A DNA stretch of 64,000 nucleotides from Gemmatimonadales bacterium (GTDB taxonomy: Bacteria > Gemmatimonadota > Gemmatimonadetes > Gemmatimonadales > GWC2-71-9), in contig JBBQFH010000002.1 of assembly GCA_038321865.1 (NCBI GenBank), positions 1 through 64,000 on the forward strand. The letters are read 5' to 3'. Made by a program: the position numbers and the translations under genes. Below, in pieces: positions 38,942 through 58,261 of this stretch. Every line of letters begins with the position of its first letter. The first letter of the stretch is position 1. Under the pieces are notes generated by a model. The model worked only from the letters and a program-made list of their open reading frames with translations. It ran no database searches and was not told where the DNA came from.

Positions 38942-39014
38942 GGTCGTGTTGGAGTGGCGACAGCCCGAATATGACGGCAATGCATGCGCCGTGCCGTGGC
39001 GCGCGTCACGCCAG

Positions 39015-39206: not shown

Positions 39207-39220
39207 AGCGGTAGAGGCTA

Positions 39221-40243
39221 CTACGGTACCCGACCCGGGTCAAGTTCCGGCGGCGCCTCATCTTCGCTCGGAATCACCCACCCCTCATCCAGCGCGGCAC
39301 GGCGGGGCCCGTCCGCCCGGCGGCGGATTCCGCCGAGCGCCAGCACCAGCGTCGCAATGACGCTCCAGACGCCGCCGGCGGCGATCCAGGTCGCCAGCCC
39401 ATACCGGCGCCGCACCGTTCCCATCCAGTCGCGAGCGAACTGTCCCACGTTGAGGCCCGTCGTCTGCCGCAGGGCGTCCTCAAACGGAACACCAGCTTCC
39501 AGGCGGGCCATCAGCGGGTCCAGCTTGCGGGTGGGATTGAGCTCGGCCAGCCGGGCCACCGCGGCCATGGAGAGCGCGTAGGCCGGACCGGCGGCGCCCT
39601 CATTCCCCCGCAGCTCGCCATCGAGGTCGTCCAGCTCGGGGACGCCGCCACGCGCGACCGACAAGTTGAGCGACAGTGCCGCGAGGCGATCCCATTCGCC
39701 GGCCGCCCACGCGGCGTAGCCTTCGTCGAACCAGCGCGGCACGCGCACCCGCACCGCGCCATGCAGTACAAGGTGAGCGAGCTCATGCCGCAGGGTTCGT
39801 TCGAGATCTCCCACATCGGCACGAAGCAGGATGGTGTGGGCCCCGGGCATCGCGATGCCGGCGCCCCACGTGGGCGCGCGTCCCCCGGTCATTTGCCGGT
39901 ATCGGGCCGCATCAGGGACCAGGATGAGCCGCATCGGCCCCGCCGAGCGGCGACCCAGACCGGGCCAGTATGCGGCCTGGTCCGCCGCTTCGGCCAGCGA
40001 CGCAGCCATGCCGAGCTGCGGGGGCCACGCGACCGCCACCACGTCGCCGACTCGCACCACGCGCGGAGGCGTCTGAGCAAACAGCAGGACGAATGCTACG
40101 AAAACCGAGTACGCGGGATCTCTCCACCCGAAGCCGCCAGGGCGACGAGCTCGCCGCAGCGCCTGGCCCAGGGGTTGAACTTGTTGGCCTTCTGCCCGTC
40201 GGTCCACGTCTGAACGGCGCCAGCCCGATCGCCGGCGAGCCAC
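39221..40243 (-). CDS. Peptidase MA-clan (gluzincin-like) membrane-anchored metalloprotease; start codon uncertain
   Basis: HELAH (HExxH), VPRWFDEGYA, C-terminal TM. The signal-like SVFVAFVLLFAQ near 40110 has no adjacent ATG/GTG. Confidence 0.75.
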   Translation of the reverse strand: MARRRSGWRRSDVDRRAEGQQVQPLGQALRRARRPGGFGWRDPAYSVFVAFVLLFAQTPPRVVRVGDVVAVAWPPQLGMAASLAEAADQAAYWPGLGRRSAGPMRLILVPDAARYRQMTGGRAPTWGAGIAMPGAHTILLRADVGDLERTLRHELAHLVLHGAVRVRVPRWFDEGYAAWAAGEWDRLAALSLNLSVARGGVPELDDLDGELRGNEGAAGPAYALSMAAVARLAELNPTRKLDPLMARLEAGVPFEDALRQTTGLNVGQFARDWMGTVRRRYGLATWIAAGGVWSVIATLVLALGGIRRRADGPRRAALDEGWVIPSEDEAPPELDPGRVP

Positions 40244-40974
40244 TGCGCCCCACCCAGCTGCAGGTACGCCTCGATCAGGTTGGGGCCGAGCCGAAGCGTC
40301 TTCCGGAAAAAGCTCTGCGCATCGTCGTACATGTCGCGCTCGAGGTACACCAGCCCAAGATAATAATGTGCGTAGAGGGTGGCCTTGCGGTCGTTGTCGA
40401 GCCGGATGGCCTTGGAGAGGTGCTCGATCGCTTCGCCGAAGATTCGCTTCTTCAGGCAGATGTAGCCGACGTTGATTCGGGCCAGGGCGTTTGCGGGCTC
40501 ATTCATCAGCACCTTGGAAAAGGTGCCCAGCGCATCGTCGTACTCCTCATGCAGCATCTGCGCCCACCCGAGCAGCGACAGCGCTTCCACCGCGCCGGGC
40601 GACAGCTCCAGCGCCCGCGAGAGCACCTGTATCGCGCCGGCATGGTCGCCGAGAGAAATGAGGCTCCAGCCCTTCTCGATGAAGGTCGACGCTCCGATAT
40701 GATCATCGTGCACCACCGGCCGGGCATCCGTAAATGCGGGAGCCTGCGCAGTCGCGGCTGACGCCGAGACCTGCTTGTAGCGGTCCACCAGCAGACGGAT
40801 GTCTTCCTTGAGCTGCGTAACCTCCGCCAGCGCCGTATCGACTTTCTTGAAGAACGCGATGATCTCCCGCTTGGCCGCGTCGCGCCCCGATGCGTCGGCC
40901 GCGGCATCGAGCCGCGATGCGATCGTCGCGTATTCGCTCCTGAGCGGTGCCGTCAGCGACTCGTCTGCCGTCAT
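40096..40974 (-). CDS. Coiled-coil plus TPR protein at the end of the che/mgl operon
   Basis: ATG 40974 in ATGA overlap with cheW, N-terminal coiled coil, about 5 TPRs (e.g. AHYYLGLVYLERDMYDDA). Confidence 0.85.
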   Translation of the reverse strand: MTADESLTAPLRSEYATIASRLDAAADASGRDAAKREIIAFFKKVDTALAEVTQLKEDIRLLVDRYKQVSASAATAQAPAFTDARPVVHDDHIGASTFIEKGWSLISLGDHAGAIQVLSRALELSPGAVEALSLLGWAQMLHEEYDDALGTFSKVLMNEPANALARINVGYICLKKRIFGEAIEHLSKAIRLDNDRKATLYAHYYLGLVYLERDMYDDAQSFFRKTLRLGPNLIEAYLQLGGAQWLAGDRAGAVQTWTDGQKANKFNPWARRCGELVALAASGGEIPRTRFS

Positions 40975-41435
40975 GTCACTACTGCCGCTTCGAGGGCCTG
41001 CCGCTCCGTCGAGCTGAGGAGCCGGAGCGCGTTCAGCAGAACCACGGCCCGATCCCCTTCCGTGAGGATCCCGGCGATGTACGTCGCGGCCAGGCCGCGG
41101 ACCATGGGAGGCGGCGCGGTGATCGTGGTGCTGTCCACCCGCATCACCTCGCGGACCTGGTCGACCAGCATGCCGATGCGCTGCCCGTCGAGATTGAGGA
41201 CCATGAGGCGGGTTTCCTCCGTTACTCCGGCCTCCAGCTCGAGCCGCTTCCGGAGATCCACCACCGGAATCGCCGTTCCGGCGTAGCGAACGACGCCCTC
41301 GAGAAACGCCGGTGCCTTGGGCAGCGCCGACGGCTTCTCGTAGCGCAGGATGCGCTCCACCTGGGAAATATCGAGCGCGAACTCCTGCGAGCCCACGCGG
41401 AACGTGACCACCTGCATGTCGTCGCCAGTGTTCAT
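40971..41435 (-). CDS. cheW: Chemotaxis coupling protein CheW (copy 3)
   Basis: VVTFRVGSQEFALDI, FLEGVVRY.G.AIPVVDLR, IGMLVDQV. Confidence 0.92.
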   Translation of the reverse strand: MNTGDDMQVVTFRVGSQEFALDISQVERILRYEKPSALPKAPAFLEGVVRYAGTAIPVVDLRKRLELEAGVTEETRLMVLNLDGQRIGMLVDQVREVMRVDSTTITAPPPMVRGLAATYIAGILTEGDRAVVLLNALRLLSSTERQALEAAVVT

Positions 41436-41860
41436 GTGTCGATTCCCCTTTCCGCGAGCCGCGCACCAAGCGCAGTGAGATCAAGCAGGGGCACCAGTCC
41501 GTCCGCGCGCCGGACGACCGCGCGCGCCCAGGGAAGGGCGGAGCTCGGCGGGAGCGGCAGCGTCGCCTCCCGCACGACCACGTCCGCCTCCTCGACCTCG
41601 AGACAGAGCCGGATACCGCCAACCGAGATGACCACCGCGACCTCACTCACCCGGGGTGGGTACGCCTCGCCGGCCAGCAGGGCGCCGAGGTGAAGCACCG
41701 GCATCATTTCTCCCCGCACGTTCGCCACGCCGCGGAGCGCGGCCTCCGTGCTCGGAACCGGGTGCGCCGGGCCAGCGTCCGCGACCGCGACGACCTGCTC
41801 CACCGGAAGGCCGACCAGGCGACCTCCGGCGCGCACGAGCAGGAAGGACGCCTCGCTCAT
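41432..41860 (-). CDS. cheW: CheW-domain protein (copy 2, divergent)
   Basis: [33 protein letters not shown]. Confidence 0.85.
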
Positions 41861-42939
41861 CGTGACGCCAGCGCGGCAAGCGCCACCTGTATCTGCGCCG
41901 CCATGTCGCGGATCGACGCCACACGGTCGGCTCCGCCGGCCTGGGCCGCAGCGTTGGGCATGCCGTATACGGTGGAGCTTTCACGATCCTGCGCCAGCCC
42001 GAATCCGCCGGCATCGTGGATTGCCTTCAGTCCGTCGGCCCCGTCACGCCCGAGACCGGTAAGCACCACCCCGATCGCACCGGGGCCGAACGCAACGGCT
42101 ACCGAGCGGAACAGGGGGTCGGCCGCGGGTCGGACCCCCCAGAGCGTGGGGCCACGATCGAGCACGAGGCACAGACCGCCGTCCACCGCCGGCATGACCT
42201 GCATGTGAAAATCACCTGGTGCCACGTACGCGGTGTCCGCCAGCAGCGGCGTCCGATCCTCGGCCTCCACCACCGCGAGGCGACTCTGCGAGGCCAGCCG
42301 CTCGGCGAGGCTTCGTGTGAACTTCGGCGGCATGTGCTGGACGATCACGACCGCCGCGCCGCTGCCGAGCTGGAGGCGCGGAACCACTTCGGCGAGTGCG
42401 CGCGGGCCGCCGGTGGATGCGGCGATCGCCACGCAGAACCGCGCGCGTCCCGGCAAGGCGAACAACCGCTCGGGCGGCGCGTCGCTCCGCCCCGGGCGGG
42501 CCAGCACCGGCAGTCGGTGAATGTTGGCTTCGCTCGCGCCTCGAAGCGCCGCGAGGACCCGCTCGCCGAGGCGATGCGAGGCCTCTGCGCCGCGATCATC
42601 CTCCTTGGCGACCAGGTCCACGGCACCAAGCTCCAGTGCCCGAATGGCCCCGGCGGTCCCGGGTCCCGCGTAGGCACTGACCACGACGATGGGGCGCGGC
42701 GACTCCGACATGATGTAGCCGATCGCGCCCAGCCCGTCGAGCTCAGGCATCTCCAGGTCCATCAGCACGAGGTCGGGCGCAAGGCGATGCACCTTCTGGA
42801 GCGCGTCCATCCCGTTCCGCGCCGTGCCGGCGAGCGCGAACTCCGCAGACCCGGTGACGGCATCGCCGAGGACGTGGCGGAAGAAAGGACTGTCGTCCAC
42901 CACGAGGACGGTGCGGCGCTCAGAGTGACTGGATCCCAT
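41857..42939 (-). CDS. cheB: Chemotaxis methylesterase/deamidase CheB (REC + CheB)
   Basis: VLVVDDS, MDLEMP receiver. Catalytic ASTGGP, VQHMP and LTGLGRDG are intact. Start ATG 42939. Confidence 0.95.
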
Positions 42940-43402
42940 GCGCCACCGAAGACACCTCGAGCCGGCCGTCCGCGACGTACAGCCGCACCGTCCGGCCGTA
43001 GTCGCCGCCGACTGACTCGCCCACCAGCGGAATGCCGTTGACATTGAGGACGTGCCGCGTCGCTACGACGTTGCGTTCTCCCATCTGGATGGCGCCATGG
43101 GGAGCGAGGTTCGCGAACATGCTGGCGCCTCCAGCGATGCGGGCGACGGTCCGCTTCGGATTGGCCCCGCCTTCGACCATGAGCGCCAGGAGCCGGGGCA
43201 CGGCCAGCTGGGGAAACTTGGCCGGATTATCCGCGTTCCGGCTGAGCGCCGGCGAGGGCAGAAGTATGTGAGCCAGGCCGCCGATCCGCGCGCTCGCATC
43301 ATGCAACGCGATCGCGACACAGCTGCCCAGCCCGACCGTGACGAGGACGTCGCCGGCGGTCCCGACATTCAGATCAGCGACCCGTACGATGATGTCGGTC
43401 AC
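42920..43402 (-). CDS. cheD: Chemoreceptor glutamine deamidase CheD
   Basis: [34 protein letters not shown]. Confidence 0.95.
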
Positions 43403-44220
43403 GCCGCGCGCCGATAAATGCGTTCCCGGGCATCCACCAGGTGGAGCCGATCCCGGGCCGGGCCGAGCAGCGTCTCGACCTTGCCCAGGACGAGGACACC
43501 GCCCGGAGAGAGCCGTGAAGCGAACGTGAGGAAAAGCCGCTCCTGCATCGGGCGATCGAAGTAGATCACAACATTCCGGCAGAGAATGAGGTCATAGGCC
43601 GGGCGAAGCGGCGGGTCGGCCCCGAGATCCAGGCGGCTGACCGTGACGCGGCGGATTAGCTCAGGCACCACACGATATCCTTCGGTTTCCGGCACGAGAT
43701 AACGCGCGGCCAGGTCGGCCGGGAGCTCGGTAATGGCGTCCGGGCGGTAGCGCGCGCTGACGGCGCGCTCCAGACTGGCGCGATCCACGTCGGTGGCGTC
43801 AATCTCCAGCCGGTCCAGCCGCTCGGCGTGCCCCGCGGCACGATCGGCCTCCGCGACGAGCATCGCCACCGTGTAGGCCTCTTCACCCGAAGCGCAGCCG
43901 GCGCTCCACGCTGCGATACGACCCTCGCGTGCGGCGACCAGCTCAGGCACGATCGAGCCGCGGAGCAGGTCCCAGGTTTCGCGGTTGCGGTAGAATCGAG
44001 TCACGTTGATGGTGAGCGCGTCACGCAGCCGCTCGCACTCCGGCGGCACGCGTTGGAGTACCGCGAGGTAATCCGTGTATGTGTGTACTCCGCAGGCGCG
44101 CATGCGCACGGCGATCCGCCGACGCAAACATTTGTCCTTGTAGACGTCGGGCGTGAGCCCGGCCGCGTCGGTGATCCGCCGCGAGAGGGCGGCGGTCAGC
44201 GCGTCGTCGGCGGCCGTCAC
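43399..44220 (-). CDS. cheR: Chemotaxis methyltransferase CheR
   Basis: YKDKCLRRRI, INVTRFYRN, WSAGCASGEEAYT, ATDVD, ILCRNVVIYF. Confidence 0.95.
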   Translation of the reverse strand: MTAADDALTAALSRRITDAAGLTPDVYKDKCLRRRIAVRMRACGVHTYTDYLAVLQRVPPECERLRDALTINVTRFYRNRETWDLLRGSIVPELVAAREGRIAAWSAGCASGEEAYTVAMLVAEADRAAGHAERLDRLEIDATDVDRASLERAVSARYRPDAITELPADLAARYLVPETEGYRVVPELIRRVTVSRLDLGADPPLRPAYDLILCRNVVIYFDRPMQERLFLTFASRLSPGGVLVLGKVETLLGPARDRLHLVDARERIYRRAA

Positions 44221-45836
44221 GATTGCCGATCCAGCATGTCGAGATTGGCCCGCGCGAGCTGATGCCCTGGGTTCAGCTCGGTCGCGCGCTGCCAGCTCGT
44301 CCGGGCCCGGGCGGGGTCCCGCCGCTTGAACGCGATGTTGCCCATCTTGAAATACAGGTCATCGCCGAGATCCGGCGCGAGACGCGCCGCGCGCTCGTAG
44401 GCCTCGAACGCCTCATCGTAGCGCCCGCCCCGGTACAGCAGGTCGGCGAGATTCTTCGAGGTCTGCGGCAGCGATGCGTCTTCGGCCAGCGCGGAGCGCA
44501 GCATGATCTCCGCCGCGGCCACGTCACCGCCGAGCTCCAGCAGCACGCCGAGATTGTTCCGCAACACGGGCTCGGCCACGTGGGCCTCGACGCCGGCGCG
44601 CGCCAGGGCAACGGCCGAGTCCGCATCATCGCAACCCGCGGCGGCGAGCGTGGCGGCCCAGAACCACAGCGGCGGGGGCGTCCGGTCGCCATGCAGTTCG
44701 CGGGCGCGGGTCAACCGTGCCTGGGCGGTCTGAAAGTCACCGCGCTTGAGCGCCACCACGCTCCAGCCGGTCTGGATCCGGGCATCGTCGCGCGCGCGCC
44801 CGGCGGCTTCGCCGTACGCGGCTTCGGCCTCGTCAAGCCGCCCAAGCTGCTCGAGCGCGAACGCCAGGTTATGCAGCGCTGCCGGACGCGGGCCGCCGCG
44901 CTCGACCGCCTGCCGCAATGCATCCGCCGCCGCCTGCCACCGCGCCTGGCGAAGCGCGATGAGCCCCAGAAAGAACGGTGCCGTTCCCTCGGACGGCCGC
45001 AGATCGGCCACGCGCCGGAACTCCCGCAGCGCCTCGTCCAGCATGCCGGTCTTGTAGAACGCGATCCCGAGATTTCGATGCTCCTCGATCCTGCTGTCAT
45101 TCATCTTGGGCACCGCGGCCGCCGCCGATGAGCCGGCACGGTGGGCGAACCCTGCCGCAATCAGCCCGTAGAGCGCCTTGCCGACCTCGAACTCCACCAG
45201 CCCGGAATCTTCGACGACCTGCTGCACGTCGCGGGTTCCGTCCAGCAGCGGAAGCAGCCGCTGCTGGACGGCCGAGAGACTGACGCCGGCGGATTCCATG
45301 TGCGTCCGGTCAAGCGAAAAAATCAGGTCAAAGGAAGGAATCTTTTTGGCGATCAGGCTCCACTCGTCCACCCGGCGCGCGCCTTCGAGGAGCAGCGACT
45401 CGGCGTTGATCTGGACCAGGAAGTCTTCCCGTTCCGGCCGAACGCCCGCCTCGAAATTGAACGTCCCGCTCGACCAGGTGAACAGGTAGTACACGGCCTC
45501 CTCGATCTGGAGTCGCATGTACTCCTCGAGTGCCGCCCGTGGCAGCGCTCCCGACTCCACGAGCAGTTCTCCGAGCTTCCGCTCGCGGTCGACGCTCTGC
45601 GCCTGGACCGCCTCCTCGAGCTGTGCCGCGCTGATGCGGCCGCTCTTGACCAGGATATCTCCCAGCCGGTCACGCCGATTCACGATGGAGGCGTAGGAAA
45701 TACGCCCGGCATCGAAGTAGACGTAGCCGAAGTTCTGCCGGTCAGCCACGGCGAGGCAGCCGGTTCGGCGCCCCAATGTCAGCAGCTGAATGACATCCGG
45801 AAGGCTGGCCTCCTTGAGACTGCCCTTGATCGCCAT
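44217..45836 (-). CDS. DUF4388 (PATAN-like) protein with inserted MshEN-like motif and C-terminal TPRs
   Basis: KGSLKEASLPDVIQLL..RRTGCL, FTWSSGTFNF, LLLEGARRVDEW, tandem RLG motif, TPRs (EHRNLGIAFYKTGM). Confidence 0.85.
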   Translation of the reverse strand: MAIKGSLKEASLPDVIQLLTLGRRTGCLAVADRQNFGYVYFDAGRISYASIVNRRDRLGDILVKSGRISAAQLEEAVQAQSVDRERKLGELLVESGALPRAALEEYMRLQIEEAVYYLFTWSSGTFNFEAGVRPEREDFLVQINAESLLLEGARRVDEWSLIAKKIPSFDLIFSLDRTHMESAGVSLSAVQQRLLPLLDGTRDVQQVVEDSGLVEFEVGKALYGLIAAGFAHRAGSSAAAAVPKMNDSRIEEHRNLGIAFYKTGMLDEALREFRRVADLRPSEGTAPFFLGLIALRQARWQAAADALRQAVERGGPRPAALHNLAFALEQLGRLDEAEAAYGEAAGRARDDARIQTGWSVVALKRGDFQTAQARLTRARELHGDRTPPPLWFWAATLAAAGCDDADSAVALARAGVEAHVAEPVLRNNLGVLLELGGDVAAAEIMLRSALAEDASLPQTSKNLADLLYRGGRYDEAFEAYERAARLAPDLGDDLYFKMGNIAFKRRDPARARTSWQRATELNPGHQLARANLDMLDRQS

Positions 45837-47827
45837 CAGCGCCACTCCTCGATCAGGCGGGCGGCGACGTCGGGCCAGTCCCAGACCATCTTTTCCCGGC
45901 TGCGAATGCCGCCGGCCGTCGGTGCGAGCACGCCGCTGGACCGGGAGCCCGTCCGCCTGGGCGCGCGGATGACGGGGCCTTCGAGTACTTCACGTGCGAG
46001 CGCGGCTGTCGGGTGGGCCTGCTGCGCTTCGGCCGCGTTCAGCACCCGCTGGACCAGGCCGAGCGCGCTGCGCATCGAGTCGGCCGGCCGGGCGGCGATG
46101 TACGCGGCGAGCTCGGGATCCACACCATCGAGCCGCGCCCCCAGCAGCCGCTCGATGGCTCGCTGGCGCAGCTCCCGATCGGGTGCGGGGAGGTCCACCA
46201 CCAGACCACCCTCGAGCCTGGTCAGCAGCCGCGGCTCGACCCCGGTCAACTCCGCCAGCGGGAGCGCGCACGAGAAGACCATCTGCCTGCCCTGCTCCAG
46301 CAGGTGGTTGAACAGGAGGAACAGCTCGTCCTGGCTCCGGTCCTTGCCGGCGATGAGGTGGACATCATCAAGGAGGAGCGCATCCACCTTCCGGTACCGG
46401 GCGCGCCAGAGCGGAACGGCATTGCGATCGATCGCGGAGATCAGCTCCTCGATGAACTCGCTGGTGCCGAGGCAAGCCACGGTGCCTGCCGGTGCCAGCG
46501 CATTCCCGAGGCCATGCAGCAGATGTGTCTTGCCATTACCGCTCGCACCCACGATGACGAGCGGATTGTACTTCGCACCAGGCTCAGCGGCGACGGCCGT
46601 GGCGGCGCGTACGGCCATCCGGTTGGATCCGCTCTCCAGGACGTCGCCAAGCCTCCAGTGCGGCGACGGTCCCGGGGGGGCCGCCGCACCGGCCTGCGCC
46701 CGCTCCAGCAGCCCCGCCGCCGCCGCCACATCATCCGGATCCTGCAGCAGCGCCGACCCAGCGAGCTCGGGCGCGATGCTCGCGAGCTCGTCGGCGATCG
46801 AGCGAAGGCGGTTGACATCGGCCTCGAACGCTCTCAATGCTGCGTCGGGATCCGCGAGTGCGTCGTCGTTGAGCAGCGCGGCCAGCCGCGCGACGCGATA
46901 GCCCTCCCCTTCCCATCGCACCATGGCCTCGCCCACCCGCGAGCGCCACGACTCGACCTGGTGGGTGACCGTCGCGGACACCTCGAGCAGGAAATCGGCG
47001 AACTCGTCCCGCTCCTCCGGCGCCTCCGCTGGCGCGGGCTCCCTCTGCTCCGGCGACGGGTGCGGTGCTTCCGGCAGGGCGTTGGCCAGGCGAACGGCAT
47101 CGGGCGCGTCACGACCGCCCACGAGGAGGCGCGCCTGGCCGGCGTCGAGGAGATCAGGGCTGATCGCCTGGTAGGCGATGAGGCGGTTCAGCGCTCCGAT
47201 GAGCTCCCGGACGTTGTCGATGTCCACCGAGGCGACGGCTTCGAGCACGCCGGCGCCGAAGGCCGCACCGCGTGCTTCCGCCCGGCGCCGGAGAATGGCG
47301 ACCCGCGTCTCATAGTCGGGTGCCGAAATGTCGATCACGAGGCCGCCCGCAAAACGGCGAATCAGCCGTTCGTCGAGCGCCTCGATTTCCGACGGTGGAC
47401 GATCGCTGGTGAGCACGATCTGACGGCCCCCGCGCTGCAGCGTATCCACCAGTCGGAGCAGTTCCGCCTGCATCTCGCGTCGCTGACTCAGAAATTGCAC
47501 ATCGTCGAGCAGCAACAGCTGGGTGTCCGCGAATCGGTGGCGATACGCATCGCCCTGGCCGCCGGCCACGGCGGCATTGACCGCCTCGACCAGCTCGTCG
47601 AGCGTCAGGTATTCCACCGCCAGGCGGGGATCGATCGCGCGAGCGGCGTGACCGATCGCCATGAGCAGATGGGTCTTCCCCAGCCCCGGCCCTGCGTAGA
47701 TGAACAGCGGGTTGTAGCCGCTGCCCGGGGCCTCGGCCACGGCATGTGCCGCCGTCGCCGCCAGGCGATTCGAGGCGCCCACGACGAGTGTCTCGAAGCG
47801 GAATTGCTCCGGCAGCGCTCTGGTCAC
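45836..47827 (-). CDS. Tandem double DnaA-type AAA+ ATPase (DnaA/Hda family) lacking DnaA domains I and IV
   Basis: Two copies of SNR.A..AA.AVA..PG..YNPL.I. with Walker A (AGPGLGKT / GASGNGKT), Walker B (LLLLDDVQ / LLLDDVH) and Arg-finger box ([10 protein letters not shown] / [10 protein letters not shown]). GTG 47827 overlaps the mglA stop. Confidence 0.88.
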
Positions 47828-48426: not shown

Positions 48427-48429
48427 GGG

Positions 48430-49238: not shown

Positions 49239-50104
49239 GAGAGTCCCTCGAGCCATCGGCGAGCGGCCTGTGCCGCGCGGTCTGCCAGCAAAGCCAGCCG
49301 GCCGGCCGGCACCCCGATGTCGCGCACAGTGAGCAGCACCGTCTCCGGAGTGGGCGCCACCAGGTGCATGTTGCCGTCAGGACACTCCACCGACACGCTC
49401 TGCCAGGCGCCGAGGCCGAGCAGTCGTCCGGCGCGGGCGGCCTCGCGGGACACACCGGCAAGATGGGCCGCGACAGTGTCGGCGACATCGGTGCCATCGC
49501 CATCCCGCAGGCCGCCGCCGAGCCGCAGGCCATGCTGATCGAGCAGCAGGAGCCCATCGCGCGCGCCTTCGAGTCCGGCAAAGAGCTCGGCATCATCGGG
49601 CAGCGACGAATCGACGTCCAGCGAGAAGGGCATCGGGGGCGATGCAGTCGCCACGCTGTCCTCCGCGCGCGGCTGCGTCTGCGGCGGGACCGGTTCCGGA
49701 GCGGTCGAGGCGGCGCGCATGCGCAGGATCGCGGCGGCGAGGCCGGCATCAGCCGCCGCACCCGCGGCGGCGGCTTCGAGGTGCCGAAGCGCACGGGGCG
49801 CGTCGCCGGCCCGATAGTAGAGAAAGCCGAGGCCCTTGTGCGCACTGCGATCAGCCGGGTCGAGGCGCAGCGCCGTCATCCAGCCGTCGAACGCCGCATC
49901 GCCATGGCCGGCATCGGCCAGGATCCGCGCGTGCAGCGAATGCGCCTCCGCCATGTCCGGGTATCGTGCCAGCCCGTTCGCCGCGACCGTCAATGCCGGC
50001 CCCAGCTGGCCGCGTTGCCGCAACAACTCGGCCAGGTCGAGAAAGGCGAGACTCGACCCGTCGGCGGCGAGCTGTGCGGTCAGCGTCCGGACGTCGTCAC
50101 TCAT
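49235..50104 (-). CDS. TPR + C-terminal Roadblock/LC7 fusion protein
   Basis: N-terminal TPRs (AFLDLAELLRQRG, AHKGLGFLYYRAGD), Pro-rich linker, then LLLDQHGL..VAAHLAGVSREA..VPAGRLALL. Confidence 0.8.
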   Translation of the reverse strand: MSDDVRTLTAQLAADGSSLAFLDLAELLRQRGQLGPALTVAANGLARYPDMAEAHSLHARILADAGHGDAAFDGWMTALRLDPADRSAHKGLGFLYYRAGDAPRALRHLEAAAAGAAADAGLAAAILRMRAASTAPEPVPPQTQPRAEDSVATASPPMPFSLDVDSSLPDDAELFAGLEGARDGLLLLDQHGLRLGGGLRDGDGTDVADTVAAHLAGVSREAARAGRLLGLGAWQSVSVECPDGNMHLVAPTPETVLLTVRDIGVPAGRLALLADRAAQAARRWLEGLS

Positions 50105-51245
50105 GCGCCGTCCGGGTTCCTTCCACAAGCGTCATCGCCGCGGCACGGAGGCGGCTCACCGACCCACCCAATGCATCCTCGGCCGGTGGTCTCGCATCCA
50201 GGCGGCTCCACGCATCCCAGGACTCCACGGCCTGCTCCAGCTGGCCGGCCCTCGCCTGGCACACGCCGAGCATCCTTCGCGCGGGAGCCAGCATCGGATC
50301 GATCCGCAGGGACTCCTGAAATGCATCCCCCGCTTCACCGTGCCGCCCGGAGGCGAGCAGGGCGCGTCCAAGCGTGACATGAGCCTCCGCATGGTCGGGC
50401 CGCGCCGCGACGACGTCGAGTGCGGCCACGCGAGCCGCCTCCGGATCTCCGGCGGCGAGCGCCGTCCGGGCGCGGAGCAGCAGCTCGTTCAGCTCGGCCC
50501 CGATCGGCGCGGGCGCCAGGGCGCGGCGTGGGTCATCCAGGACGATGACCCCGGCGGCGGCGAGGCCGAAGAGCGTCCGCGCGATTTCGAAATCCGAGCG
50601 CCCGACCGCAGCCGCGACGCCGTGTACATCGCGGGTGCCGTCGACGGCGCCAAGCACTTGCCATTCCGCCGGCAACAGATCAAGCCGTGTGGTGCCGCCG
50701 GCATCCGGCGGCACCAGCTCCGGCACCATCCCCAGATGCGGAATCCGGCTCTCGATGCGCGCCCACTCGTCGATCCGCCGCGCAGCCTCCATCAGCAGCG
50801 CCTCGGTGGGGATGCGCACCTGGCCGGGCCCGGAAGGCGCCGGCGGCGTTTCCGAGAAGGAGAAGTAGCCTTCGGACCAGCTCATGAGCTCGAAGATTAC
50901 CTCCTCGACCTGCGCCCGTGCCTGACGTTCCAGCTCCCGGCGGCCGACCGCACCCATGGCGAGCAGGATGTCGCCGAGGCGCCGGCCGTCGCCCCCCTCC
51001 TGCATCGCCAGGGCCCTCGCAAAATCCTCCTCGCTCAGCTTGCCGCTTCGCAACAACAGCGTCCCCAGCGGATGCGGATTGGTGCGGATCTCGGCCGCGA
51101 CCACCCCGCCCTGCTCGAACTGCACGGTTCCGGCGTTCTGCCTGAGGTCCGACGTGATCCGCAGCGTGCCGGTCTTCCGCGCCAGATCGAGCAGCTGGAA
51201 GACATCGTGAATCGACAGCTCCTTGAGCGGGCCTTCGATCGGCAT
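50097..51245 (-). CDS. DUF4388 (PATAN-like) protein with MshEN-like insert and C-terminal TPRs
   Basis: EGPLKELSIHDVFQLL..RKTGTL, MSWSEGYFSF, LLMEAARRIDEW. Confidence 0.85.
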   Translation of the reverse strand: MPIEGPLKELSIHDVFQLLDLARKTGTLRITSDLRQNAGTVQFEQGGVVAAEIRTNPHPLGTLLLRSGKLSEEDFARALAMQEGGDGRRLGDILLAMGAVGRRELERQARAQVEEVIFELMSWSEGYFSFSETPPAPSGPGQVRIPTEALLMEAARRIDEWARIESRIPHLGMVPELVPPDAGGTTRLDLLPAEWQVLGAVDGTRDVHGVAAAVGRSDFEIARTLFGLAAAGVIVLDDPRRALAPAPIGAELNELLLRARTALAAGDPEAARVAALDVVAARPDHAEAHVTLGRALLASGRHGEAGDAFQESLRIDPMLAPARRMLGVCQARAGQLEQAVESWDAWSRLDARPPAEDALGGSVSRLRAAAMTLVEGTRTAHE

Positions 51246-51247
51246 GG

Positions 51248-53917
51248 CTAGCCCGCCGTCGTGGCGAAGATGTGCTGCAGGTCGCGCGCGGATCGCGCGC
51301 GGGCGCGGGCCTGCGCGGCGAGATCTCCGGCGGGTTCGAGCTGCACCACTCGGTCCCAGGCCGTGACCGCGTCAGCGAAATGGCGTTCCCGTGCAAGGGC
51401 GACGCCCCGATGGAAGAGCGCGGCAGCGTCATTCGGGTCGAACCGGAGTACCCGGTCGAACGCCTCGAGTGCGCAGCTCGTCCGGCCGTCCTCGAGCAGG
51501 ATCCGCCCGAGGAGCGTCAGGGCCGCCAATTCGTAGGGGTCCACCGAAAGTGTCCGCACCAGGACGTCGATGCCCGCGCTCGCGGATTCGGTCCGGGCGA
51601 GGAGGTCCGCCAGCGCCATGGCGGCATCGGTGAAGGTCGGGAGCAGCTGGAGCGCCCGCTCGTACGCTGCGCGCGCGGCCGCCCAGTTGGCCCGTGCCTC
51701 TTCCAGGCCGCCGAGCTCGTACCAGACCTGCACCAGCGAACCGTCGAGTTGCAGCGCCACCTGGCAGGCCTCGAGCGCAGCGTCGATGTCGCCGAGTTGG
51801 CCGGCGATCACCGCCTGGAGCTGGTACAGATCGGGCCGGCCGGGCGCCGCGCGCTGGGCCGCGCGCACTGCGGCCATGGCGGCGGCCGCGTCGCCGGTCG
51901 CGTGGAGCACGCGCGCATGGGCCAGCAGCACGTCCGCATCACCGGGTGCGCGCCGAGCAAGCGCTCCCGCGACTTCGACCGCCTCGCTCGCACGGCCAAG
52001 CGCCACCAGACTGCGTATCTCGCCCAAGGCGGGTCCCAGCTCGCCCGGCGCAGCCGCGCGCGCTTCGGCAAAGCGCTCGAGGGCTTCGCCATGCAGGCCC
52101 CGCCGGGCGAAGATGGCGCCCCAGAGCGCTGCCGCATGTGCCGGTGTCACGCCCCGGCCACGCAAGCGCTCAAGCTCGGCGGCGGCAAGCTCCAGCAGCC
52201 CCTTGGCCACGTAGTCGCGCGCCAGCGCCAGCGGGTCGGGTTCGTGCGGTTCGACCACGTCCGCCCGTGCCGGCGCCAGCTCGTCGAACAGCCGATCGAG
52301 CGCCGTCGGATCGAAGGCGAACTCGCCGGCGAGCGTCGAACCGCTGAGCTCCGCCTTCAGTGCCGGTGCCACGGCGATGGTCGGATCCTCGAACTGAAGG
52401 TCGATTGCCAGCACGTATTTCTGGGGCACGTAGTACGGCTCCAGCTCGAGCGCCTGTTTAGTGGCCCTCAGCGCCGCATCGAAGTCGCCCAGCTGGCTCA
52501 ACGTAAAGCTCAGGTTGTAGTGCGCCGCCGCCAGCGTGGGGTCCGCTTCCACCGCGCGGCCAAAGGCGTTCCTTGCATCGGAAAACCGCTTGAGCTCCAT
52601 CAGCACGAGCCCCACTCCATTCCACGCGATGGCGCTGCCGGGAACCTCCGCGAGTACACGCCGATACCCCTCCAGCGCCTGCTGGATCTCCTGCCGCTGG
52701 AAATGCAGCAGCGCCAGGTTGAGGCGGGCGGTGAGCGGCGGCCGCGTGCCCTGCGTTGCACGGCGGAAGGCCTCAAGGGCGGCGGCGTCCGCCGGATTCT
52801 GGGCCCGGAGGACGCCCAGATTGTTCCAGGCCAGCGCGTAGGCCGGGTCGAGATCGACCGAGCGCGCGTACGACGCCGCGGCCTGGTCCAGCCGGCCGAC
52901 CTGATGCAGGCAGACGCCGCGTTCGTTCCAGAGCTTCGGCGAATCACCAAACTGCTGCACCAGCGTCTCGTAGAGCTCGAGCGCCGCGGCGAGGTCATGC
53001 CGCAGCAGCTGGACCTCGGCCATCGCCTGCAAGGCGTGTCGCCGATCGTCACCGGCATCCAGCGCCAGCCGGTACTCACGCAACGCCTCGGCGTAGTAGC
53101 CCTTCTGCCGGAACGCCAGGCCGAGCGCGAAGTGCGCCAGGGCGCCGTGTCTCACGACCTTCGGCCCCTCCGCGGCGGGCTGCCGCGCCGGCTCCGGCTG
53201 ACCGAGAGCGAGGTTGGCCTGGGCGCGGGCGAGCAGCGGGTTCAGCTCGATGGCGCGCCTGGCGGAGCTTCGGGCCGCTTCCTGGTCACCGATGTCGCCG
53301 TACACGAAGGCAAGCAGGTAATGCGCGTCGGCGTATTCCGGATTGCGGGCAATTGCGGCCTGAAGCGCCGTGCGCGCAGGCTCGTTGAGGCCGCGATTGT
53401 AGAGCGCTTCGCCATAGGCGAAGAGGGCGACGGGGCTCTCGGGATCGCGTTGGCACGCCTGACGAAACCATTCGACCGCCGCGTCGATGTTGCCGCGCGC
53501 CTTCTCCGCGAGCCCGATCTGCACCAGCGCCGCCGCATCGCCCGGCTCCGCCGCCAGCAGCGCCTCGAACTCGTGCACGGCCTCGTCGTGGTGCCCCAGC
53601 GCGGCGTAGGCACGGCCCAGCTCCCAGCGCGCGTCGCGGTCGCGCGGAGAGCTCCGGAGCCGCTCCCGCAGCTCTGCCACGCGGCGGTCGTAGTGCCCGT
53701 TCTCCCGGTAGGCGAGCTCCAGGTTGGTCTGGGCCACCTGCATCTTCGGATCGAGCTCGAGCGCGCGCGCGAAACCAGCCACGGCCTCTGCGATGAGGCC
53801 CTTCTGGTAGTAGAGCACGCCGAGATTGTTGTGCGCGCCGGCGTCGGACGGATCGATCCGGGTGGCGAACGACCGGAGCGCGGCGAGATCGCGCTCGGAA
53901 AGCACGGGGGCCGGCAT
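51248..53917 (-). CDS. Large cytoplasmic TPR-repeat protein (889 aa)
   Basis: Many canonical TPRs (AHNNLGVLYYQKG, AWNNLGVL, AWNGVGLVLMEL) and no signal peptide. Start ATG 53917. Confidence 0.88.
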   Translation of the reverse strand: MPAPVLSERDLAALRSFATRIDPSDAGAHNNLGVLYYQKGLIAEAVAGFARALELDPKMQVAQTNLELAYRENGHYDRRVAELRERLRSSPRDRDARWELGRAYAALGHHDEAVHEFEALLAAEPGDAAALVQIGLAEKARGNIDAAVEWFRQACQRDPESPVALFAYGEALYNRGLNEPARTALQAAIARNPEYADAHYLLAFVYGDIGDQEAARSSARRAIELNPLLARAQANLALGQPEPARQPAAEGPKVVRHGALAHFALGLAFRQKGYYAEALREYRLALDAGDDRRHALQAMAEVQLLRHDLAAALELYETLVQQFGDSPKLWNERGVCLHQVGRLDQAAASYARSVDLDPAYALAWNNLGVLRAQNPADAAALEAFRRATQGTRPPLTARLNLALLHFQRQEIQQALEGYRRVLAEVPGSAIAWNGVGLVLMELKRFSDARNAFGRAVEADPTLAAAHYNLSFTLSQLGDFDAALRATKQALELEPYYVPQKYVLAIDLQFEDPTIAVAPALKAELSGSTLAGEFAFDPTALDRLFDELAPARADVVEPHEPDPLALARDYVAKGLLELAAAELERLRGRGVTPAHAAALWGAIFARRGLHGEALERFAEARAAAPGELGPALGEIRSLVALGRASEAVEVAGALARRAPGDADVLLAHARVLHATGDAAAAMAAVRAAQRAAPGRPDLYQLQAVIAGQLGDIDAALEACQVALQLDGSLVQVWYELGGLEEARANWAAARAAYERALQLLPTFTDAAMALADLLARTESASAGIDVLVRTLSVDPYELAALTLLGRILLEDGRTSCALEAFDRVLRFDPNDAAALFHRGVALARERHFADAVTAWDRVVQLEPAGDLAAQARARARSARDLQHIFATTAG

Positions 53918-53921
53918 GGCC

Positions 53922-54542: not shown

Positions 54543-54555
54543 TCGCTCCTCGCTC

Positions 54556-56400
54556 CTACAACAGTGCGGCCGCGTCCAGAATGAGCGCGGGCGACCCGTC
54601 CGCCAGAATCGTCGCCCCGCCGAAGAATGACGGCATGCCAAGCGGCGCGTCGAACGGTTCCACCACGATGTCCTGCTGGCCAAGCAGCGCGTCGACCACC
54701 AGCGCCGCCCGGCGATCACCAACCTCGAGGATCACGGTGGGACGCCGAACTGGGGGCGGTCCCCCGCGCAGCGCGACCAGGTCACGAAGATGCACAGTCG
54801 GGATGGCCTGATCGCGCACCACCAGCGCCTCCCGGTCGCGTACCGCGGTGACGGCACGGCCGTCGAACTCCACCGTCTCCGCCACGTAGGCGAGCGGAAT
54901 GGCATAGCGTTCGGCGCCCACGGACGTCAGCAGCGCCCGGACAATGGCGAGCGTAAGCGGGACACGCACCACAAACGTCGTACCCTGCCCCGCCACCGAC
55001 TCGATCGCCAGCGTGCCGCCCAGCGTCCGTACCCGGGTCGCCACGACATCCACGCCGACGCCGCGGCCGGACACGCCGCTCACCTGTGTGGCGGTGCTGA
55101 ACCCCGGCCGGGCGAGGGTCTTGAGCAGGCTGTCGTCTGTCAGCGCCTCGACCGCCGCGTCGAGAATCCCTTCCTGCCGGGCCTTCGCCAGAATGGCGGC
55201 CCGATCGATGCCTCGGCCGTCATCGGAGACCCGGATGGCCACGCTATTCCGTTCCCGCGCCGCCGACAGCAGGATCCGACCCTGCGGCGGCTTGCCGGCG
55301 GCCACCCTCGTCTCCGGCGTTTCCAGCCCGTGGTCCATCGCATTCCGGATGAGGTGCAGGAGCGGATCGCCGATTTCGTCGAGAATCGCACGGTCGAGCT
55401 CGATCCCTTCGCCCTCGATTTCGAACCGCACCTGCTTCCCCAGGTCGCGGGACAGATCCCGCACCAGTCGCGGAAACCGGTCGAACACTTCTCCGACCGG
55501 CGTCATCCGGGCCTGAATGACCTCCACCTGCAGATCGGTGACCAGCCGGGCGATCCGCTCCGTGACGGTCTCCAGCTCCGGCGCCGCGCCAGTCCGCACC
55601 AGATCGACGAGGCGGTTCCGCGCCACGACCAGCTCACCGACCTGCTTCATCATGGTGTCGAGCCGGCGCAGGTCGACGCGGATCTGCCGGCCGCGCACAG
55701 TCGGCTCGGTACGCTCCGGCGCGATCTCGTCGAAGGTGATGCCGTCCACGTCACCGGCGGAGCGGATCGCGACCCTGACGTCCTCGTCCGATGCGGCGGA
55801 CTCGAGCCGGAAACTGAACTTCCCGTCGAAGTCTTCCCGTTCGAACGCTGCGGCCGCCGGCCGGAGCGCAGTCACCGTGCCCAGCTGCTCGGCCCGACGG
55901 AGCGCCAGCATCGCCCGGCCCCCTCGCATCTGCGCGCCGGCGCGGATCGCCACGCTCACCGCCCGCCCCGACGGCTGAATGAGGTGCACCGCAAATTCGG
56001 CTGTCTGCGCACTGACGAGGCCGCCGGCCGCGGCACGGTCGAGCGCGGTGATGAGGTCACCGTCCGCCGTATTCGCCGGTTGACCCGCGGCGGCTCGCTC
56101 GACGCCCCCTGCGATCTCGTCGACGGCGCCGAACAGCAGCTGGAACAGCTCCGGGGCGGCCGCGACCCGACCGGTCCGCAACGCGTCGAGCAGGTTCTCC
56201 GCGCTGTGGGCGACGCGGGCCACGCCCTCGTACCCCATGGTCGCCGCCATGCCCTTGATCGTGTGGATGGCCCGGAAGAGGCCGTCCACCGGCTCCGGAG
56301 CCGCCGGGTCACGCTCCCACTCGAGCAGACACTGATTGCACGCGGCGAGGTGCTCCCGGCTCTCAGCCAGGAAGAGCGCGGCGTACTTGGCAAGATCCAT
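54556..56400 (-). CDS. cheA: Chemotaxis histidine kinase CheA (P1-P2-P3-P4-P5)
   Basis: FRAIHTIKG (Hpt His), IRVDLRRLD, HLIRNAMDHG, DDGRGID, PGFSTA, SGRGVG, C-terminal CheW domain. Confidence 0.96.
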   Translation of the reverse strand: MDLAKYAALFLAESREHLAACNQCLLEWERDPAAPEPVDGLFRAIHTIKGMAATMGYEGVARVAHSAENLLDALRTGRVAAAPELFQLLFGAVDEIAGGVERAAAGQPANTADGDLITALDRAAAGGLVSAQTAEFAVHLIQPSGRAVSVAIRAGAQMRGGRAMLALRRAEQLGTVTALRPAAAAFEREDFDGKFSFRLESAASDEDVRVAIRSAGDVDGITFDEIAPERTEPTVRGRQIRVDLRRLDTMMKQVGELVVARNRLVDLVRTGAAPELETVTERIARLVTDLQVEVIQARMTPVGEVFDRFPRLVRDLSRDLGKQVRFEIEGEGIELDRAILDEIGDPLLHLIRNAMDHGLETPETRVAAGKPPQGRILLSAARERNSVAIRVSDDGRGIDRAAILAKARQEGILDAAVEALTDDSLLKTLARPGFSTATQVSGVSGRGVGVDVVATRVRTLGGTLAIESVAGQGTTFVVRVPLTLAIVRALLTSVGAERYAIPLAYVAETVEFDGRAVTAVRDREALVVRDQAIPTVHLRDLVALRGGPPPVRRPTVILEVGDRRAALVVDALLGQQDIVVEPFDAPLGMPSFFGGATILADGSPALILDAAALL

Positions 56401-56404
56401 GGAG

Positions 56405-56767
56405 CTAGCCGAGGACGCGCTGAACGGCCTCGAGCACGCGGGATGGCTGGAACGGCTTGACGACGAAGTCCTTCGCACCGGCCTGAATGGCCTCGACGAC
56501 CAGGGCCTGCTGGCCCATGGCACTACACATCAGCACCTTTGCGTCGGGATCGCCTCGGCAGATTTCCCGCACCGCATCGATGCCGCCCATGTCGGGCATC
56601 ACGATATCCATGGTGTCGAGGTCGGGCTTGAGCTGGCGGTTCGTCTCGACCGCCTGCACGCCGGACTCGGCCTCGCCGACGATCTCGAATCCGGCCTGGC
56701 TCAGGATGTCGCTGATCATCGTGCGCATGAAGATGGCATCATCGCAGACGAGAACCGTATGACTCAC
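56405..56767 (-). CDS. cheY: Single-domain response regulator CheY (DifD/F1-like)
   Basis: SD GGAGG and GTG 56767; VLVCDDAIFMR, MD54IVMP, MCSAMGQ, DFVVKPF. Confidence 0.93.
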   Translation of the reverse strand: MSHTVLVCDDAIFMRTMISDILSQAGFEIVGEAESGVQAVETNRQLKPDLDTMDIVMPDMGGIDAVREICRGDPDAKVLMCSAMGQQALVVEAIQAGAKDFVVKPFQPSRVLEAVQRVLG

Positions 56768-56822
56768 TAGCCCACCTCCGTGCGATTTCGTAGACGCGGG
56801 CCGGACGGCGCCGCGAGTGGAG

Positions 56823-57260
56823 TCAGCTGCCGAGCATCGGCGCGAGGAGCGCCTCGATGTCGAGAATGACGAAGTGTTCGTCGCCCCGGCGTCCCACCGC
56901 CAGGACGATCCGGGGATCCACGCCCGGAAGCTGATCCCGCTCCGCCACTGCCGTCGTCGGCAGTTCGACAAAATCGCTCACTTCGCCGACCAGCAGCCCG
57001 TACGTCCGTTGCCCGACGTCCATGACGATGACGGCACCCTCGTCCGCGTCGCGTCGCGTCTGACCCAGCAGCCGGTGCCCATCCACCACGGTCAGCAGTG
57101 CTCCCCGCACATTGATCAGCCCCTCCACGGCCCCGGCGACACCGGGAATGCGGGTAGCCGGGAGCGGCGGCAGGATCTCTCGCACAATCCCTGCCGGGGC
57201 GGCGCAGACCAGGTCGCCGACGCGAAACACGACGGCATGGAGGGTCGGGGAATCAGGCAT
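56823..57260 (-). CDS. cheW: CheW (copy 1)
   Basis: VVFRVG, VEGLINVRGALLTVVD, YGLLVGEV, ILDIEALL. Confidence 0.9.
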   Translation of the reverse strand: MPDSPTLHAVVFRVGDLVCAAPAGIVREILPPLPATRIPGVAGAVEGLINVRGALLTVVDGHRLLGQTRRDADEGAVIVMDVGQRTYGLLVGEVSDFVELPTTAVAERDQLPGVDPRIVLAVGRRGDEHFVILDIEALLAPMLGS

Positions 57261-58248
57261 CTCTATTGAAGAAAAGAAGATACCGAAGGGGTTGGGATTG
57301 GGCAACGATTCCCTGGTCAGTCAGGAGCGCGAGTGCAGGCAGGAGGTCGGCTGGCCACTCGCTCTCGAACCTAAGGCGTTCTCCGCTAACAGGATGGCGA
57401 AATGCGAGGGACGCCGCGTGCAGGGCCTGGCGCGGGGTAATGCGCTCCAGTGCTTCCGCCCTGGGCCGGCCGGCGCCGGAGATGCGACGCGCGCCGCCAC
57501 CGGCGTAGACCGGATCGCCGACGATCGGGTGCCCGATGTGCTCGAGATGAACCCTGATCTGGTGCGTCCGGCCGGTGTGCAGCTCGAGACGAAGCAGCTC
57601 GGCAACCTCGAAGCGGGCGATGACGAACGCGTCGGTCCGAGCGGCCCGGCCGCCGGCCTGGACGCTCATCCGCTTGCGGTCCGCCGGATGCCGGGCCAGC
57701 GCGGCGTCGATGGTGGTCGGACTGGCATCCTGATGGCCCCATGCCAGTGCTGCATAGGTTCGCTGAACCCGGCGGGCGGCAAGCGCGGCGCCGAGTCGCC
57801 GGTGCGCCAGATCGGTCTTGGCGACGACCATGAGGCCGGAGGTATCGCGGTCGAGTCGGTGCACGATCCCGGGCCGGCCTTCGGCGCCGCCGGACAGCGT
57901 GGTGCCGCGGGCGATGAGCGCATTGACGAGAGTGTCGTCCCAGTGGCCCGGTGCCGGGTGCACGACGAGTCCGGCGGGCTTGTCGATGACGGCGAGATCA
58001 TCGTCCTCATAGACGACCACGAGATCGATGGCAGCGGGGCGCAGGGTCCGTGGCGGCTCGTCGACGGGAAACCCGACCACGACGTCGTCACCTCGCGCGA
58101 GCAGCCGCGAGGCGCGAGCGACGGTGCCGTTGACGCTCACCGTCTTGCCGGCGACGATGCGCGCGGCCTGTGTGCGAGAGAGCTGGAGCTGGTCGGCGAG
58201 GAAGCGGTCGAGGCGCTCGGTAGCCGGCACCGCCACCGAAAAGCGCAC
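57253..58248 (-). CDS. rluD: RluA/RluD-family 23S rRNA pseudouridine synthase with S4 domain
   Basis: RLDRFL, DKPAGLVVHP, GIVHRLDRDTSGL, TGRTHQIRVH, RQALHA. Confidence 0.93.
   Translation of the reverse strand: MRFSVAVPATERLDRFLADQLQLSRTQAARIVAGKTVSVNGTVARASRLLARGDDVVVGFPVDEPPRTLRPAAIDLVVVYEDDDLAVIDKPAGLVVHPAPGHWDDTLVNALIARGTTLSGGAEGRPGIVHRLDRDTSGLMVVAKTDLAHRRLGAALAARRVQRTYAALAWGHQDASPTTIDAALARHPADRKRMSVQAGGRAARTDAFVIARFEVAELLRLELHTGRTHQIRVHLEHIGHPIVGDPVYAGGGARRISGAGRPRAEALERITPRQALHAASLAFRHPVSGERLRFESEWPADLLPALALLTDQGIVAQSQPLRYLLFFNRDA
57277..57305 (-). promoter_or_regulatory. Putative sigma70 promoter of the che/mgl operon, inside the rluD 3' end
   Basis: Minus strand TTGCCC-17 nt-TATCTT followed by an AT-rich leader of 16 nt to the cheW ATG. 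Confidence 0.55.
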
Positions 58249-58261
58249 CTCGCCACCGCGG

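Follow-up and report, generated by a model that had tools for sequence, protein, structure and literature searches.

A conserved chemosensory, MglA and PATAN gene string with a DnaA-derived protein in Gemmatimonadales and its possible role in the control of type IV pili

The Frz chemosensory pathway of Myxococcus xanthus has a hybrid kinase, FrzE, in which CheA is fused to a receiver (REC) domain, and the F1 class of chemosensory systems is defined by a P2-type CheA, CheC together with CheD, a stand-alone CheY and 44-heptad (44H) receptors. In the GTPase MglA, residues of the P-loop, the DRTL arginine and the TVPGQ motif have a catalytic role. MglA recruits SgmX, a protein with 14 tetratricopeptide repeats (TPRs), to activate pili (PMC11580455), and the FrzZ-RomR step in Myxococcus is marked as not shown to be direct (Fig. 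4 legend, PMC4316618). PATAN domains are reported to bind PilB1 and PilC (bioRxiv 10.1101/2021.06.11.447907). Group 1 MglA genes with neighbouring PATAN genes have already been described (Wuichet & Sogaard-Andersen 2014, PMC4316618), and Table S2 of that paper lists for Gemmatimonas aurantiaca an 'MglB>MglA>' locus and a second locus, GAU_1409, written 'PATAN>MglA>-PATAN>'; its main text mentions neither DnaA nor TPR, and what it says of the GAU_1409 locus names neither che genes nor a DnaA-like gene or TPR proteins. Here we analyse a 64,000-nucleotide (nt) stretch of DNA from a Gemmatimonadales bacterium (the window; GenBank assembly GCA_038321865.1, contig JBBQFH010000002.1, positions 1 to 64,000), which holds 18 co-oriented genes combining a chemosensory set, an MglA paralog (MglA2), two PATAN proteins (PAT539 and PAT382) and a DnaA-derived protein (DnaA2). 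The components as such are known, and a linkage of MglA with PATAN has been published; the main new result is a series of natural deletions in related genomes. Our preferred reading, to which we give about even chances, is that an F1-like, non-flagellar chemosensory system feeds a PATAN hub, which likely tunes type IV pili and for which MglA2, cyclic di-GMP (c-di-GMP) and the ATPase modules would be optional inputs.

The 18 genes lie on the minus strand (as do all features of the string given below) in the order claimed by the original prediction, and each has Pfam or NCBIfam domain support. The tight coupling it described from cheC onward is also present: with the starts chosen here, neighbouring genes either overlap (by 20 nt for cheD/cheB) or stand at most 4 nt apart. 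The loci of related genomes have the same genes in the same order, far beyond chance. Among 151 genomes of the phylum, 104 of them in the order Gemmatimonadales, a search with the N-terminal part of PAT539 was positive in 70 of the 71 family members, in 28/31 and 2/2 of the other order members (100/104 of the order), in all four members of three small families outside it, in 1/16 of another family and in 0/26 others. The system is thus a feature of the whole order, the main one of the phylum, with scattered presence in neighbouring lineages, and not the phylum-wide one that had been proposed. All but one of the 80 loci listed for DnaA2 carry Gemmatimonadota titles; the remaining one (L070, DnaA2 75% identical) is on a 7.4-kb contig of a metagenome-assembled genome titled Bacillota and is probably mis-binned. 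We compared 65 loci, a non-random set of which 40 were chosen by their DnaA2 match, 20 mostly as deviant-looking and five as lacking the operon. All 18 genes are at full length in 16 of the 65, and many other loci differ only in the assignment of the downstream cheW copies or end at the fetched edge. Apparent gene swaps in L002, L003, L007, L018 and L026 are probably an artefact of sorting by the stop-to-stop ends of open reading frames (ORFs).

The deviant loci amount to natural deletions. In L015 and L055 all che genes are gone and in L053 those downstream of PAT539, and in each the MglA core stays; in L050 and L051 the genes from TPR889 to mglA are gone and the che genes stay; in L040 only DnaA2 and PAT539 are left between rluD and the peptidase gene; in L064-L068 the system is absent. 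PAT539 (539 amino acids (aa); 44217..45836), the most constant gene of the string, and the C-terminal tail of DnaA2 (663 aa; 45836..47827) survive the loss of che (L015, L055), the loss of TPR889 to mglA (L050, L051) and both losses (L040). DnaA2 itself also shrinks. It is reduced to one AAA+ module in L039 and L049, with a partial module in L047, and at the same position in L044, L045, L046, L050, L051 and L052 it is replaced by a micro-ORF of 60-73 aa (two of the six are identical). The micro-ORFs contain only an acidic amphipathic 'EFxxFL' helix (aa 275-283 of DnaA2; 46979..47005), seen there as EFxxF, and a tail with W, R and EE, which in DnaA2 reads EKxxWxWPxxxxRxxEE (45839..45895). The ATPase domains are therefore dispensable in these six loci, and since a three-gene tree separates L050/L051, which group with full-length lineages (support 0.98), from L044/L045/L052, DnaA2 was reduced independently at least twice. 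PAT539 changes as well in the six micro-ORF loci, where it is C-terminally shorter (430-477 aa, compared with 537-587 aa in 50 of the 51 other parsed loci) and has lost its MshEN insert in five of the six, as against none of the 51. The tail motif lies directly upstream of PAT539 in all 59 PAT539-bearing loci, a count in which 56 of 57 come from parsed loci and the other three from separate inspection. In L046, the 108-nt spacer (about 10985-11092) between the micro-ORF at 10778-10984 and PAT539 at 11093-12523 holds a short tandem repeat that reads (MRDAS)n.

The system had been proposed to form one module. The locus is indeed conserved and non-flagellar, but the che genes, the MglA/roadblock genes, the MshEN insert and the ATPase domains have each been lost in some lineages with the rest kept. 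Because these deletions leave only PAT539 and the two short DnaA2 motifs constant, we suggest that these likely form a hub that passes signals on. From their co-retention with PAT539 we infer that the tail and helix are binding motifs with PAT539 as the partner; DnaA2 would dock on PAT539 through the acidic helix, the tail or both, and its ATP-binding AAA+ modules and helical repeat would contribute to assembly or timing as an optional layer. An inter-protein covariation analysis of the two motifs against six partners (effective size about 55-60, from 92-114 pairs) favoured none of them and is uninformative.

Both PATAN proteins match PF14332 (DUF4388; E 1e-36 and 3e-31) and continue into TPRs; a domain search found no fused REC domain in them, the TPRs standing in its place. 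PAT539 carries a tandem MshEN insert (aa 55-110) that scores 44.6 bits against NF053729 (cut-off 38), keeps a tandem RLG motif and matches PilF (6f8l). The degenerate MshEN-like insert of PAT382 (382 aa; 50097..51245) reaches 36.1 bits, just under the cut-off, and its first arginine is missing. In the source genome the MshEN profile matches only PAT539, PAT382 and PilB. The possible c-di-GMP sensors of the original prediction accordingly hold up as one predicted c-di-GMP-binding insert over the cut-off and a second just under it. We suggest that phosphorylated CheY (CheY-P) would act on the PATAN proteins, which would make the pair a two-gene version of the cyanobacterial PatA PATAN-REC fusion. 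A third PAT539-like gene occurs outside the operon in four genomes (G044, G069, G090 and G093; 53-61% identity over the N-terminal part). The ESM Atlas match to PAT539 is a cluster of 526-aa PATAN-TPR proteins that is commonest in candidate division WOR-3, so a counterpart outside Gemmatimonadota may exist.

The chemosensory genes flank this core. Upstream are cheW1 (145 aa, PF01584; 56823..57260), cheY (120 aa; 56405..56767), which is the most conserved che gene (75-90% identity across relatives), cheA (614 aa, with Hpt, P2, dimer, HATPase and CheW domains; 54556..56400) and the phosphatase gene cheC (206 aa, PF04509 and NF041093; 53922..54542). Downstream, domain matches identify cheR (43399..44220), cheD (42920..43402), cheB (REC and methylesterase domains; 41857..42939), cheW2 (41432..41860) and cheW3 (40971..41435). 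The only cheA, cheB, cheR, cheC, cheD and cheW genes found in the source genome are those of the string. CheA, in which a domain search found no REC domain, has 3ja6 and 1b3q as its closest solved structures; the best NCBIfam matches are to Halobacteria models for CheA and CheY and to a Thermotogales model for CheC. With a P2-bearing CheA, CheC, CheD and a stand-alone CheY, the che part looks F1-like by sequence. The string holds no receptor, and three methyl-accepting chemotaxis proteins (MCPs) are encoded elsewhere in the source genome. All three have predicted transmembrane helices and C-arms of 44H length (154, 154 and 156 residues), with methylation-like sites in the two of 154; the 44H type is also that of F9 receptors (PMC9321776) and is not diagnostic of F1 by itself. 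A chemoreceptor at G000:C1:148987-151071 (minus strand) has about six predicted transmembrane helices and a GAF-like region, and methylation-like sites are almost absent from it. Seven of the 71 family genomes are without an MCP, and all seven are among the eight without a CheA match; because receptors and CheA are lost together, we infer that they are paired. The unlinked receptors would then signal through CheW and CheA to CheY, with CheR, CheB and CheD adapting the response and CheC resetting it.

Between cheC and DnaA2 lies the MglA part. It begins with TPR889 (889 aa; 51248..53917), a large TPR protein whose architecture recalls the MglA effector SgmX, and after PAT382 continues with a TPR and Roadblock protein (289 aa; 49235..50104), a Roadblock/LC7 protein (115 aa; 48891..49238), an MglB-like roadblock protein (153 aa; 48430..48891) and MglA2 (200 aa; 47824..48426). 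The MglB-like protein, a predicted GTPase-activating protein, matches the Thermus MglB model NF052242 weakly (E 1.9e-8; 34.5 bits, below the cut-off of 200), and its gene is lost in five MglA-positive loci (L027, L030, L037, L061 and L046). MglA2 matches M. xanthus MglA (5ymx) over its full length (E 1.5e-71) and belongs to the group 1 GTPases, with the P-loop (GKT), the DRTL arginine and TVPGQ present and NKQD replacing NKRD. The source genome also has a canonical mglBA pair, beside recR on contig C45, which makes MglA2 a second paralog, and most genomes of the order have two MglA matches. By analogy with MglA-SgmX, MglA2 with MglB, the roadblock proteins and TPR889 would supply pole information. 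In two diverged operons (L018 and L056, genus g11) MglA2 is only 38-42% identical, TPR889 is truncated, PAT382 is degenerate and cheR, cheD and cheB are lost; DnaA2 and PAT539 are intact. The string ends with a further TPR protein, TPR292 (292 aa; 40096..40974), identified by domain match.

As to the output, FlhA was found neither in the source genome (90% complete) nor in 78 of the 104 genomes of the order, the other 26 being positive. PilM is present in 101 of the 104, and the source genome has pilB-pilT-pilC, with pilB at C4:104328-106226. One genome that is 99% complete (G043) has no operon, no PilM, no PilB over the cut-off and a PilT with an in-frame stop. From the Synechocystis proteins, we suggest that the PATAN domain would contact PilB and PilC and set where and when pili extend; the motor would then be tuned at the cell pole. 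Of the roles in polarity, pili or gliding that had been proposed, a pilus output is plausible; a Myxococcus-type gliding machine was not found, the model of GltG (one marker of Agl-Glt) staying under its cut-off in 5/5 genomes with matches limited to short stretches, and the MglA of the string is the second paralog. A PilB/GspE-like ATPase with a C-terminal receiver domain is encoded at G000:C9:90161-92488 (plus strand; 776-aa frame), which could be a direct phospho-input to a pilus-type ATPase; homologs of similar length occur in operon-less genomes, G043 among them.

Several observations weigh against a pilus-tuning hub. PilM is nearly universal (144 of the 151 genomes), which leaves pilus co-occurrence little power; the co-loss of operon and pili rests on one genome (G043), and two genomes without the operon keep PilB, PilT and PilM (G091 and G089), a third PilM and PilT (G085). 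The canonical mglBA pair could be the real pilus-polarity switch. One genome (G093) has two MCPs and no CheA match. The DnaA2 stop overlaps the PAT539 start in most loci, and translational coupling could be part of the reason why PAT539 and the tail are kept together, although such coupling accounts neither for the conserved Trp, Arg and Glu of the tail nor for the helix upstream of it. Finally, a second cheA lies about 20 kb from flhA in five flagellated genomes (G122, G045, G010, G096 and G099), but nine others (G021, G027, G029, G050, G095, G107, G126, G140 and G148) have one CheA match only, and in those nine the pathway may also serve flagella.

The last point also suits a first alternative, that two or three separate units (an F1-like che operon, the MglA/roadblock/PATAN genes and housekeeping genes) were interleaved once in an ancestor and kept by inheritance without cross-talk, the che genes being a relic or a part-time flagellar system. 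The independent loss of the che and MglA parts and the fusion of unrelated housekeeping genes (ileS, lspA, rluD) to the string are in keeping with it. However, PAT539 and the tail persist whichever of the two parts is retained, and the che set and receptors are kept in most non-flagellated genomes (CheA is found in 63 of the 71 family genomes and FlhA in 13). Retention of a che set with a highly conserved CheY in the absence of a flagellum calls for a non-flagellar target, and we consider the interleaving explanation rather unlikely.

A second alternative takes its cue from DnaA2, whose two AAA+ modules (2x Bac_DnaA) correspond to domain III of DnaA by domain match, model and fold search (Z 31 to 8bv3). 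They are 44% and 36% identical to the DnaA of the source genome, the canonical gene for which is on contig C6, and trees place both modules together, beside the phylum's own DnaA. Among 41 full-length orthologs, the Walker A lysine is kept in 41 (module 1) and 40 (module 2), the first Walker B aspartate likewise in 41 and 40, the arginine finger in 34 and 40 and the sensor II arginine in 39 and 38; the sensor I aspartate is kept in 36 in module 1 and is mostly lost in module 2 (10/41). No DnaA_N or Bac_DnaA_C match (domains I and IV) was obtained, and none of the 41 orthologs has a clamp-binding motif of the QL[SD]LF type in its first 40 residues. The alignment-based model (pLDDT 88, both AAA+ modules above 90; a single-sequence model gave 39) comprises the two domain-III modules, a disordered linker, a helical middle domain and the tail, which has low confidence in the monomer. 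On the alternative explanation the locus couples signalling to the cell cycle: the PATAN proteins and MglA2 would label the new pole or the site of division, while the DnaA-derived ATPase would communicate with the divisome or with DnaA itself. The preserved ATPase residues and the kinship with DnaA agree with this, as do the position of the string about 3 kb upstream of the division and cell wall (dcw) cluster, rsmH to ftsZ, a same-strand arrangement that 9 of the 10 tested relatives share with the source genome, and the reported localisation of Anabaena PatA to division sites (bioRxiv 10.1101/2021.06.11.447907). Yet rluD-rsmH synteny remains in four of the five operon-less genomes, so the position may be inherited context; DnaA2 lacks domain IV and the clamp motif; and loss of the whole operon (G043, G085, G091, G089) or of the ATPase modules (the six micro-ORF loci) is tolerated. 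The proposed link of motility to the cell cycle is accordingly weak, in the absence of the DNA-binding domain IV and with some lineages keeping only the two short motifs, and we regard this explanation as unlikely.

An output other than a motor, with the hub controlling adhesion, exopolysaccharide or secretion as an alternative-cellular-function pathway under c-di-GMP, would suit the two MshEN-type inserts, the seven GGDEF matches and the further PilB/GspE- and PilT-like ATPases of the source genome and the persistence of pili without the operon in two or three genomes, but is quite improbable given that the string holds no transcription factor, cyclase or polysaccharide gene, that MshEN is lost in five loci while the genomes tested (G036, G072 and G052) still encode GGDEF proteins, and that the known PATAN and MglA outputs are, in the sources cited above, pilus-related.

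The middle domain of DnaA2 is a helical repeat unit (about aa 293-379; 46691..46951). It has no Pfam match, and the fold search with the whole DnaA2 model, which returned AAA+ matches only, barely probed it. A profile of this middle domain matched 393 representatives at E <=0.001. The 150 listed include at least 23 large proteins in which the repeat occurs several times, at least four of these ending in a DnaA-type AAA+ domain; those of the listed multi-repeat proteins that are named (P0209, P0168 and cluster mates of P0210) belong to Thermoplasmata or Thermoplasmatota, and others are fusions with DUF835 or KaiC-like domains. Although the four DnaA fusions come without a taxon name, their AAA+ domains group with full support with P0312 from a Thermoplasmata archaeon, a protein without DnaA domain I or IV. 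Conversely, a profile of 78 archaeal-type repeat copies matched only DnaA2 among 22,679 ORFs of the source genome (E 2.4e-16), in a test that is partly circular, the copies having been gathered with the bacterial profile. The best trees separate the archaeal and Gemmatimonadota signalling AAA+ domains, but an approximately unbiased (AU) test (on 53 of 76 rows, after removal of six with long branches and thinning of 17; most outgroups are from Bacillota) does not reject a single clade (p 0.072), and the repeat may have been combined with the DnaA domain once or on two occasions. A PATAN-like nature of the archaeal N-terminal domain, which as a natural fusion would have spoken for the hub, was considered and not established (hhalign probability <1%; DUF2226 at E 0.042 in one of four). 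A first scan for the genomic context of the archaeal proteins yielded none and a second a single 2.5-kb contig. P0139, P0167, P0187, P0212, P0294-P0302, P0312 and P0313 probably form a Thermoplasmata family of repeat-DnaA proteins, with an uncharacterised N-terminal domain, at least six helical repeats, a bacterial-type DnaA AAA+ domain closest to that of Bacillota (about 69%), a zinc ribbon and a lysine-rich tail, and no domain IV; a W-to-G change in the RFEWG motif is common to this family and both DnaA2 modules. A broader proposal, which we put forward tentatively and think less probable than not, is that a DnaA ATPase was co-opted in Gemmatimonadota, and again in Thermoplasmata, into a scaffold on the same repeat of about 90 residues, and that its essential part in Gemmatimonadales is a two-motif peptide that binds the PATAN-MshEN-TPR hub, at which inputs from CheY-P, a dedicated MglA and c-di-GMP would converge to steer pili.

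The gene string runs on at both sides, with yggS-ileS-dksA-lspA-rluD upstream and a peptidase MA-family gene (39221..40099, start not fixed) downstream, and 40096-57305 are therefore not established transcript ends. The candidate promoter placed at 57277-57305 by the original prediction is rejected: it falls inside the coding sequence of the rluD-family pseudouridine synthase (58248-57253, minus strand). There is an 8-nt overlap between the stop of rluD and the start of cheW1 (57260), and a sigma-70 scan of 38500-58400 gave no site (shuffle mean 1.1). rluD was found in 60 of the 65 loci; lspA is tandemly duplicated upstream of it in seven (L023, L024, L026, L027, L030, L035 and L061). We treat the peptidase gene as flanking and outside the system because operon-less genomes keep it too. 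Beyond it lie two tRNAs, then the dcw cluster, which is complete (rsmH, ftsI, murE/F, mraY, murD, ftsW, murG, murC, ftsA, ftsZ; 21548-36846, minus strand). A 585-aa TPR protein with a signal-peptide-like start (37042-38799, minus strand), between tRNA-Val (38867-38941) and tRNA-Asp (36918-36992), is conserved directly upstream of rsmH in many relatives.

If the broader proposal holds, the locus would give F1-type chemotaxis a new kind of output and would hard-wire Che to a GTPase at the genetic level. The chemosensory-to-MglA link is open in Myxococcus, and candidate wiring for it would lie here in one string of an abundant soil order, with the natural deletions pointing to an irreducible hub. 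The locus would also be a case of an F1-like pathway that operates without flagella and of a replication-initiator ATPase put to a new use in signalling, with a domain-level parallel in archaea. The natural minimal forms of 60-73 aa make the key binding test small and cheap. The claim that the arrangement is undescribed stands for the locus as a whole, the tandem DnaA protein, the micro-ORFs and the repeat, none of which was found in a literature search in which most subscription journals were not covered (PMC13747009 gave no match for 'Gemmatimonad'), but the MglA-PATAN linkage is in print (PMC4316618).

The GAU_1409 locus shows, by its description in Table S2, the same pattern as the core here, with a listed GTPase length of 229 against 200. 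Another of the closest known systems is the Myxococcus xanthus Frz-MglA/MglB(/RomR-RomX/MglC)-SgmX system, which likewise combines a chemosensory pathway, group 1 MglA, roadblock proteins, a large TPR protein and pili. Here, in contrast, these are encoded in one gene string with a stand-alone CheY, CheC and CheD, a P2-type CheA and a DnaA-derived protein, and the MglA is a second paralog; the CheA-REC hybrid and cytoplasmic receptor of Frz have no equivalent, CheA being without REC and all three MCPs having transmembrane helices. Cyanobacterial PatA-type (PATAN-REC) regulators are reported to use PATAN as a chemosensory output domain, whereas here PATAN is fused to MshEN and TPRs, CheY is a separate gene and the contact with PilB/PilC is a predicted one. 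The F1-class systems of Bacillus, Thermotoga and archaea share the P2 CheA, CheC and CheD, stand-alone CheY and 44H receptors, but three quarters of the carriers here are without a flagellum, and their che genes are interleaved with the MglA/PATAN core. Finally, DnaA2 resembles DnaA domain III and Hda in fold and sequence and differs from them in being a tandem without domains I and IV or a clamp motif, in having an extra repeat and tail, and in being dispensable in some lineages.

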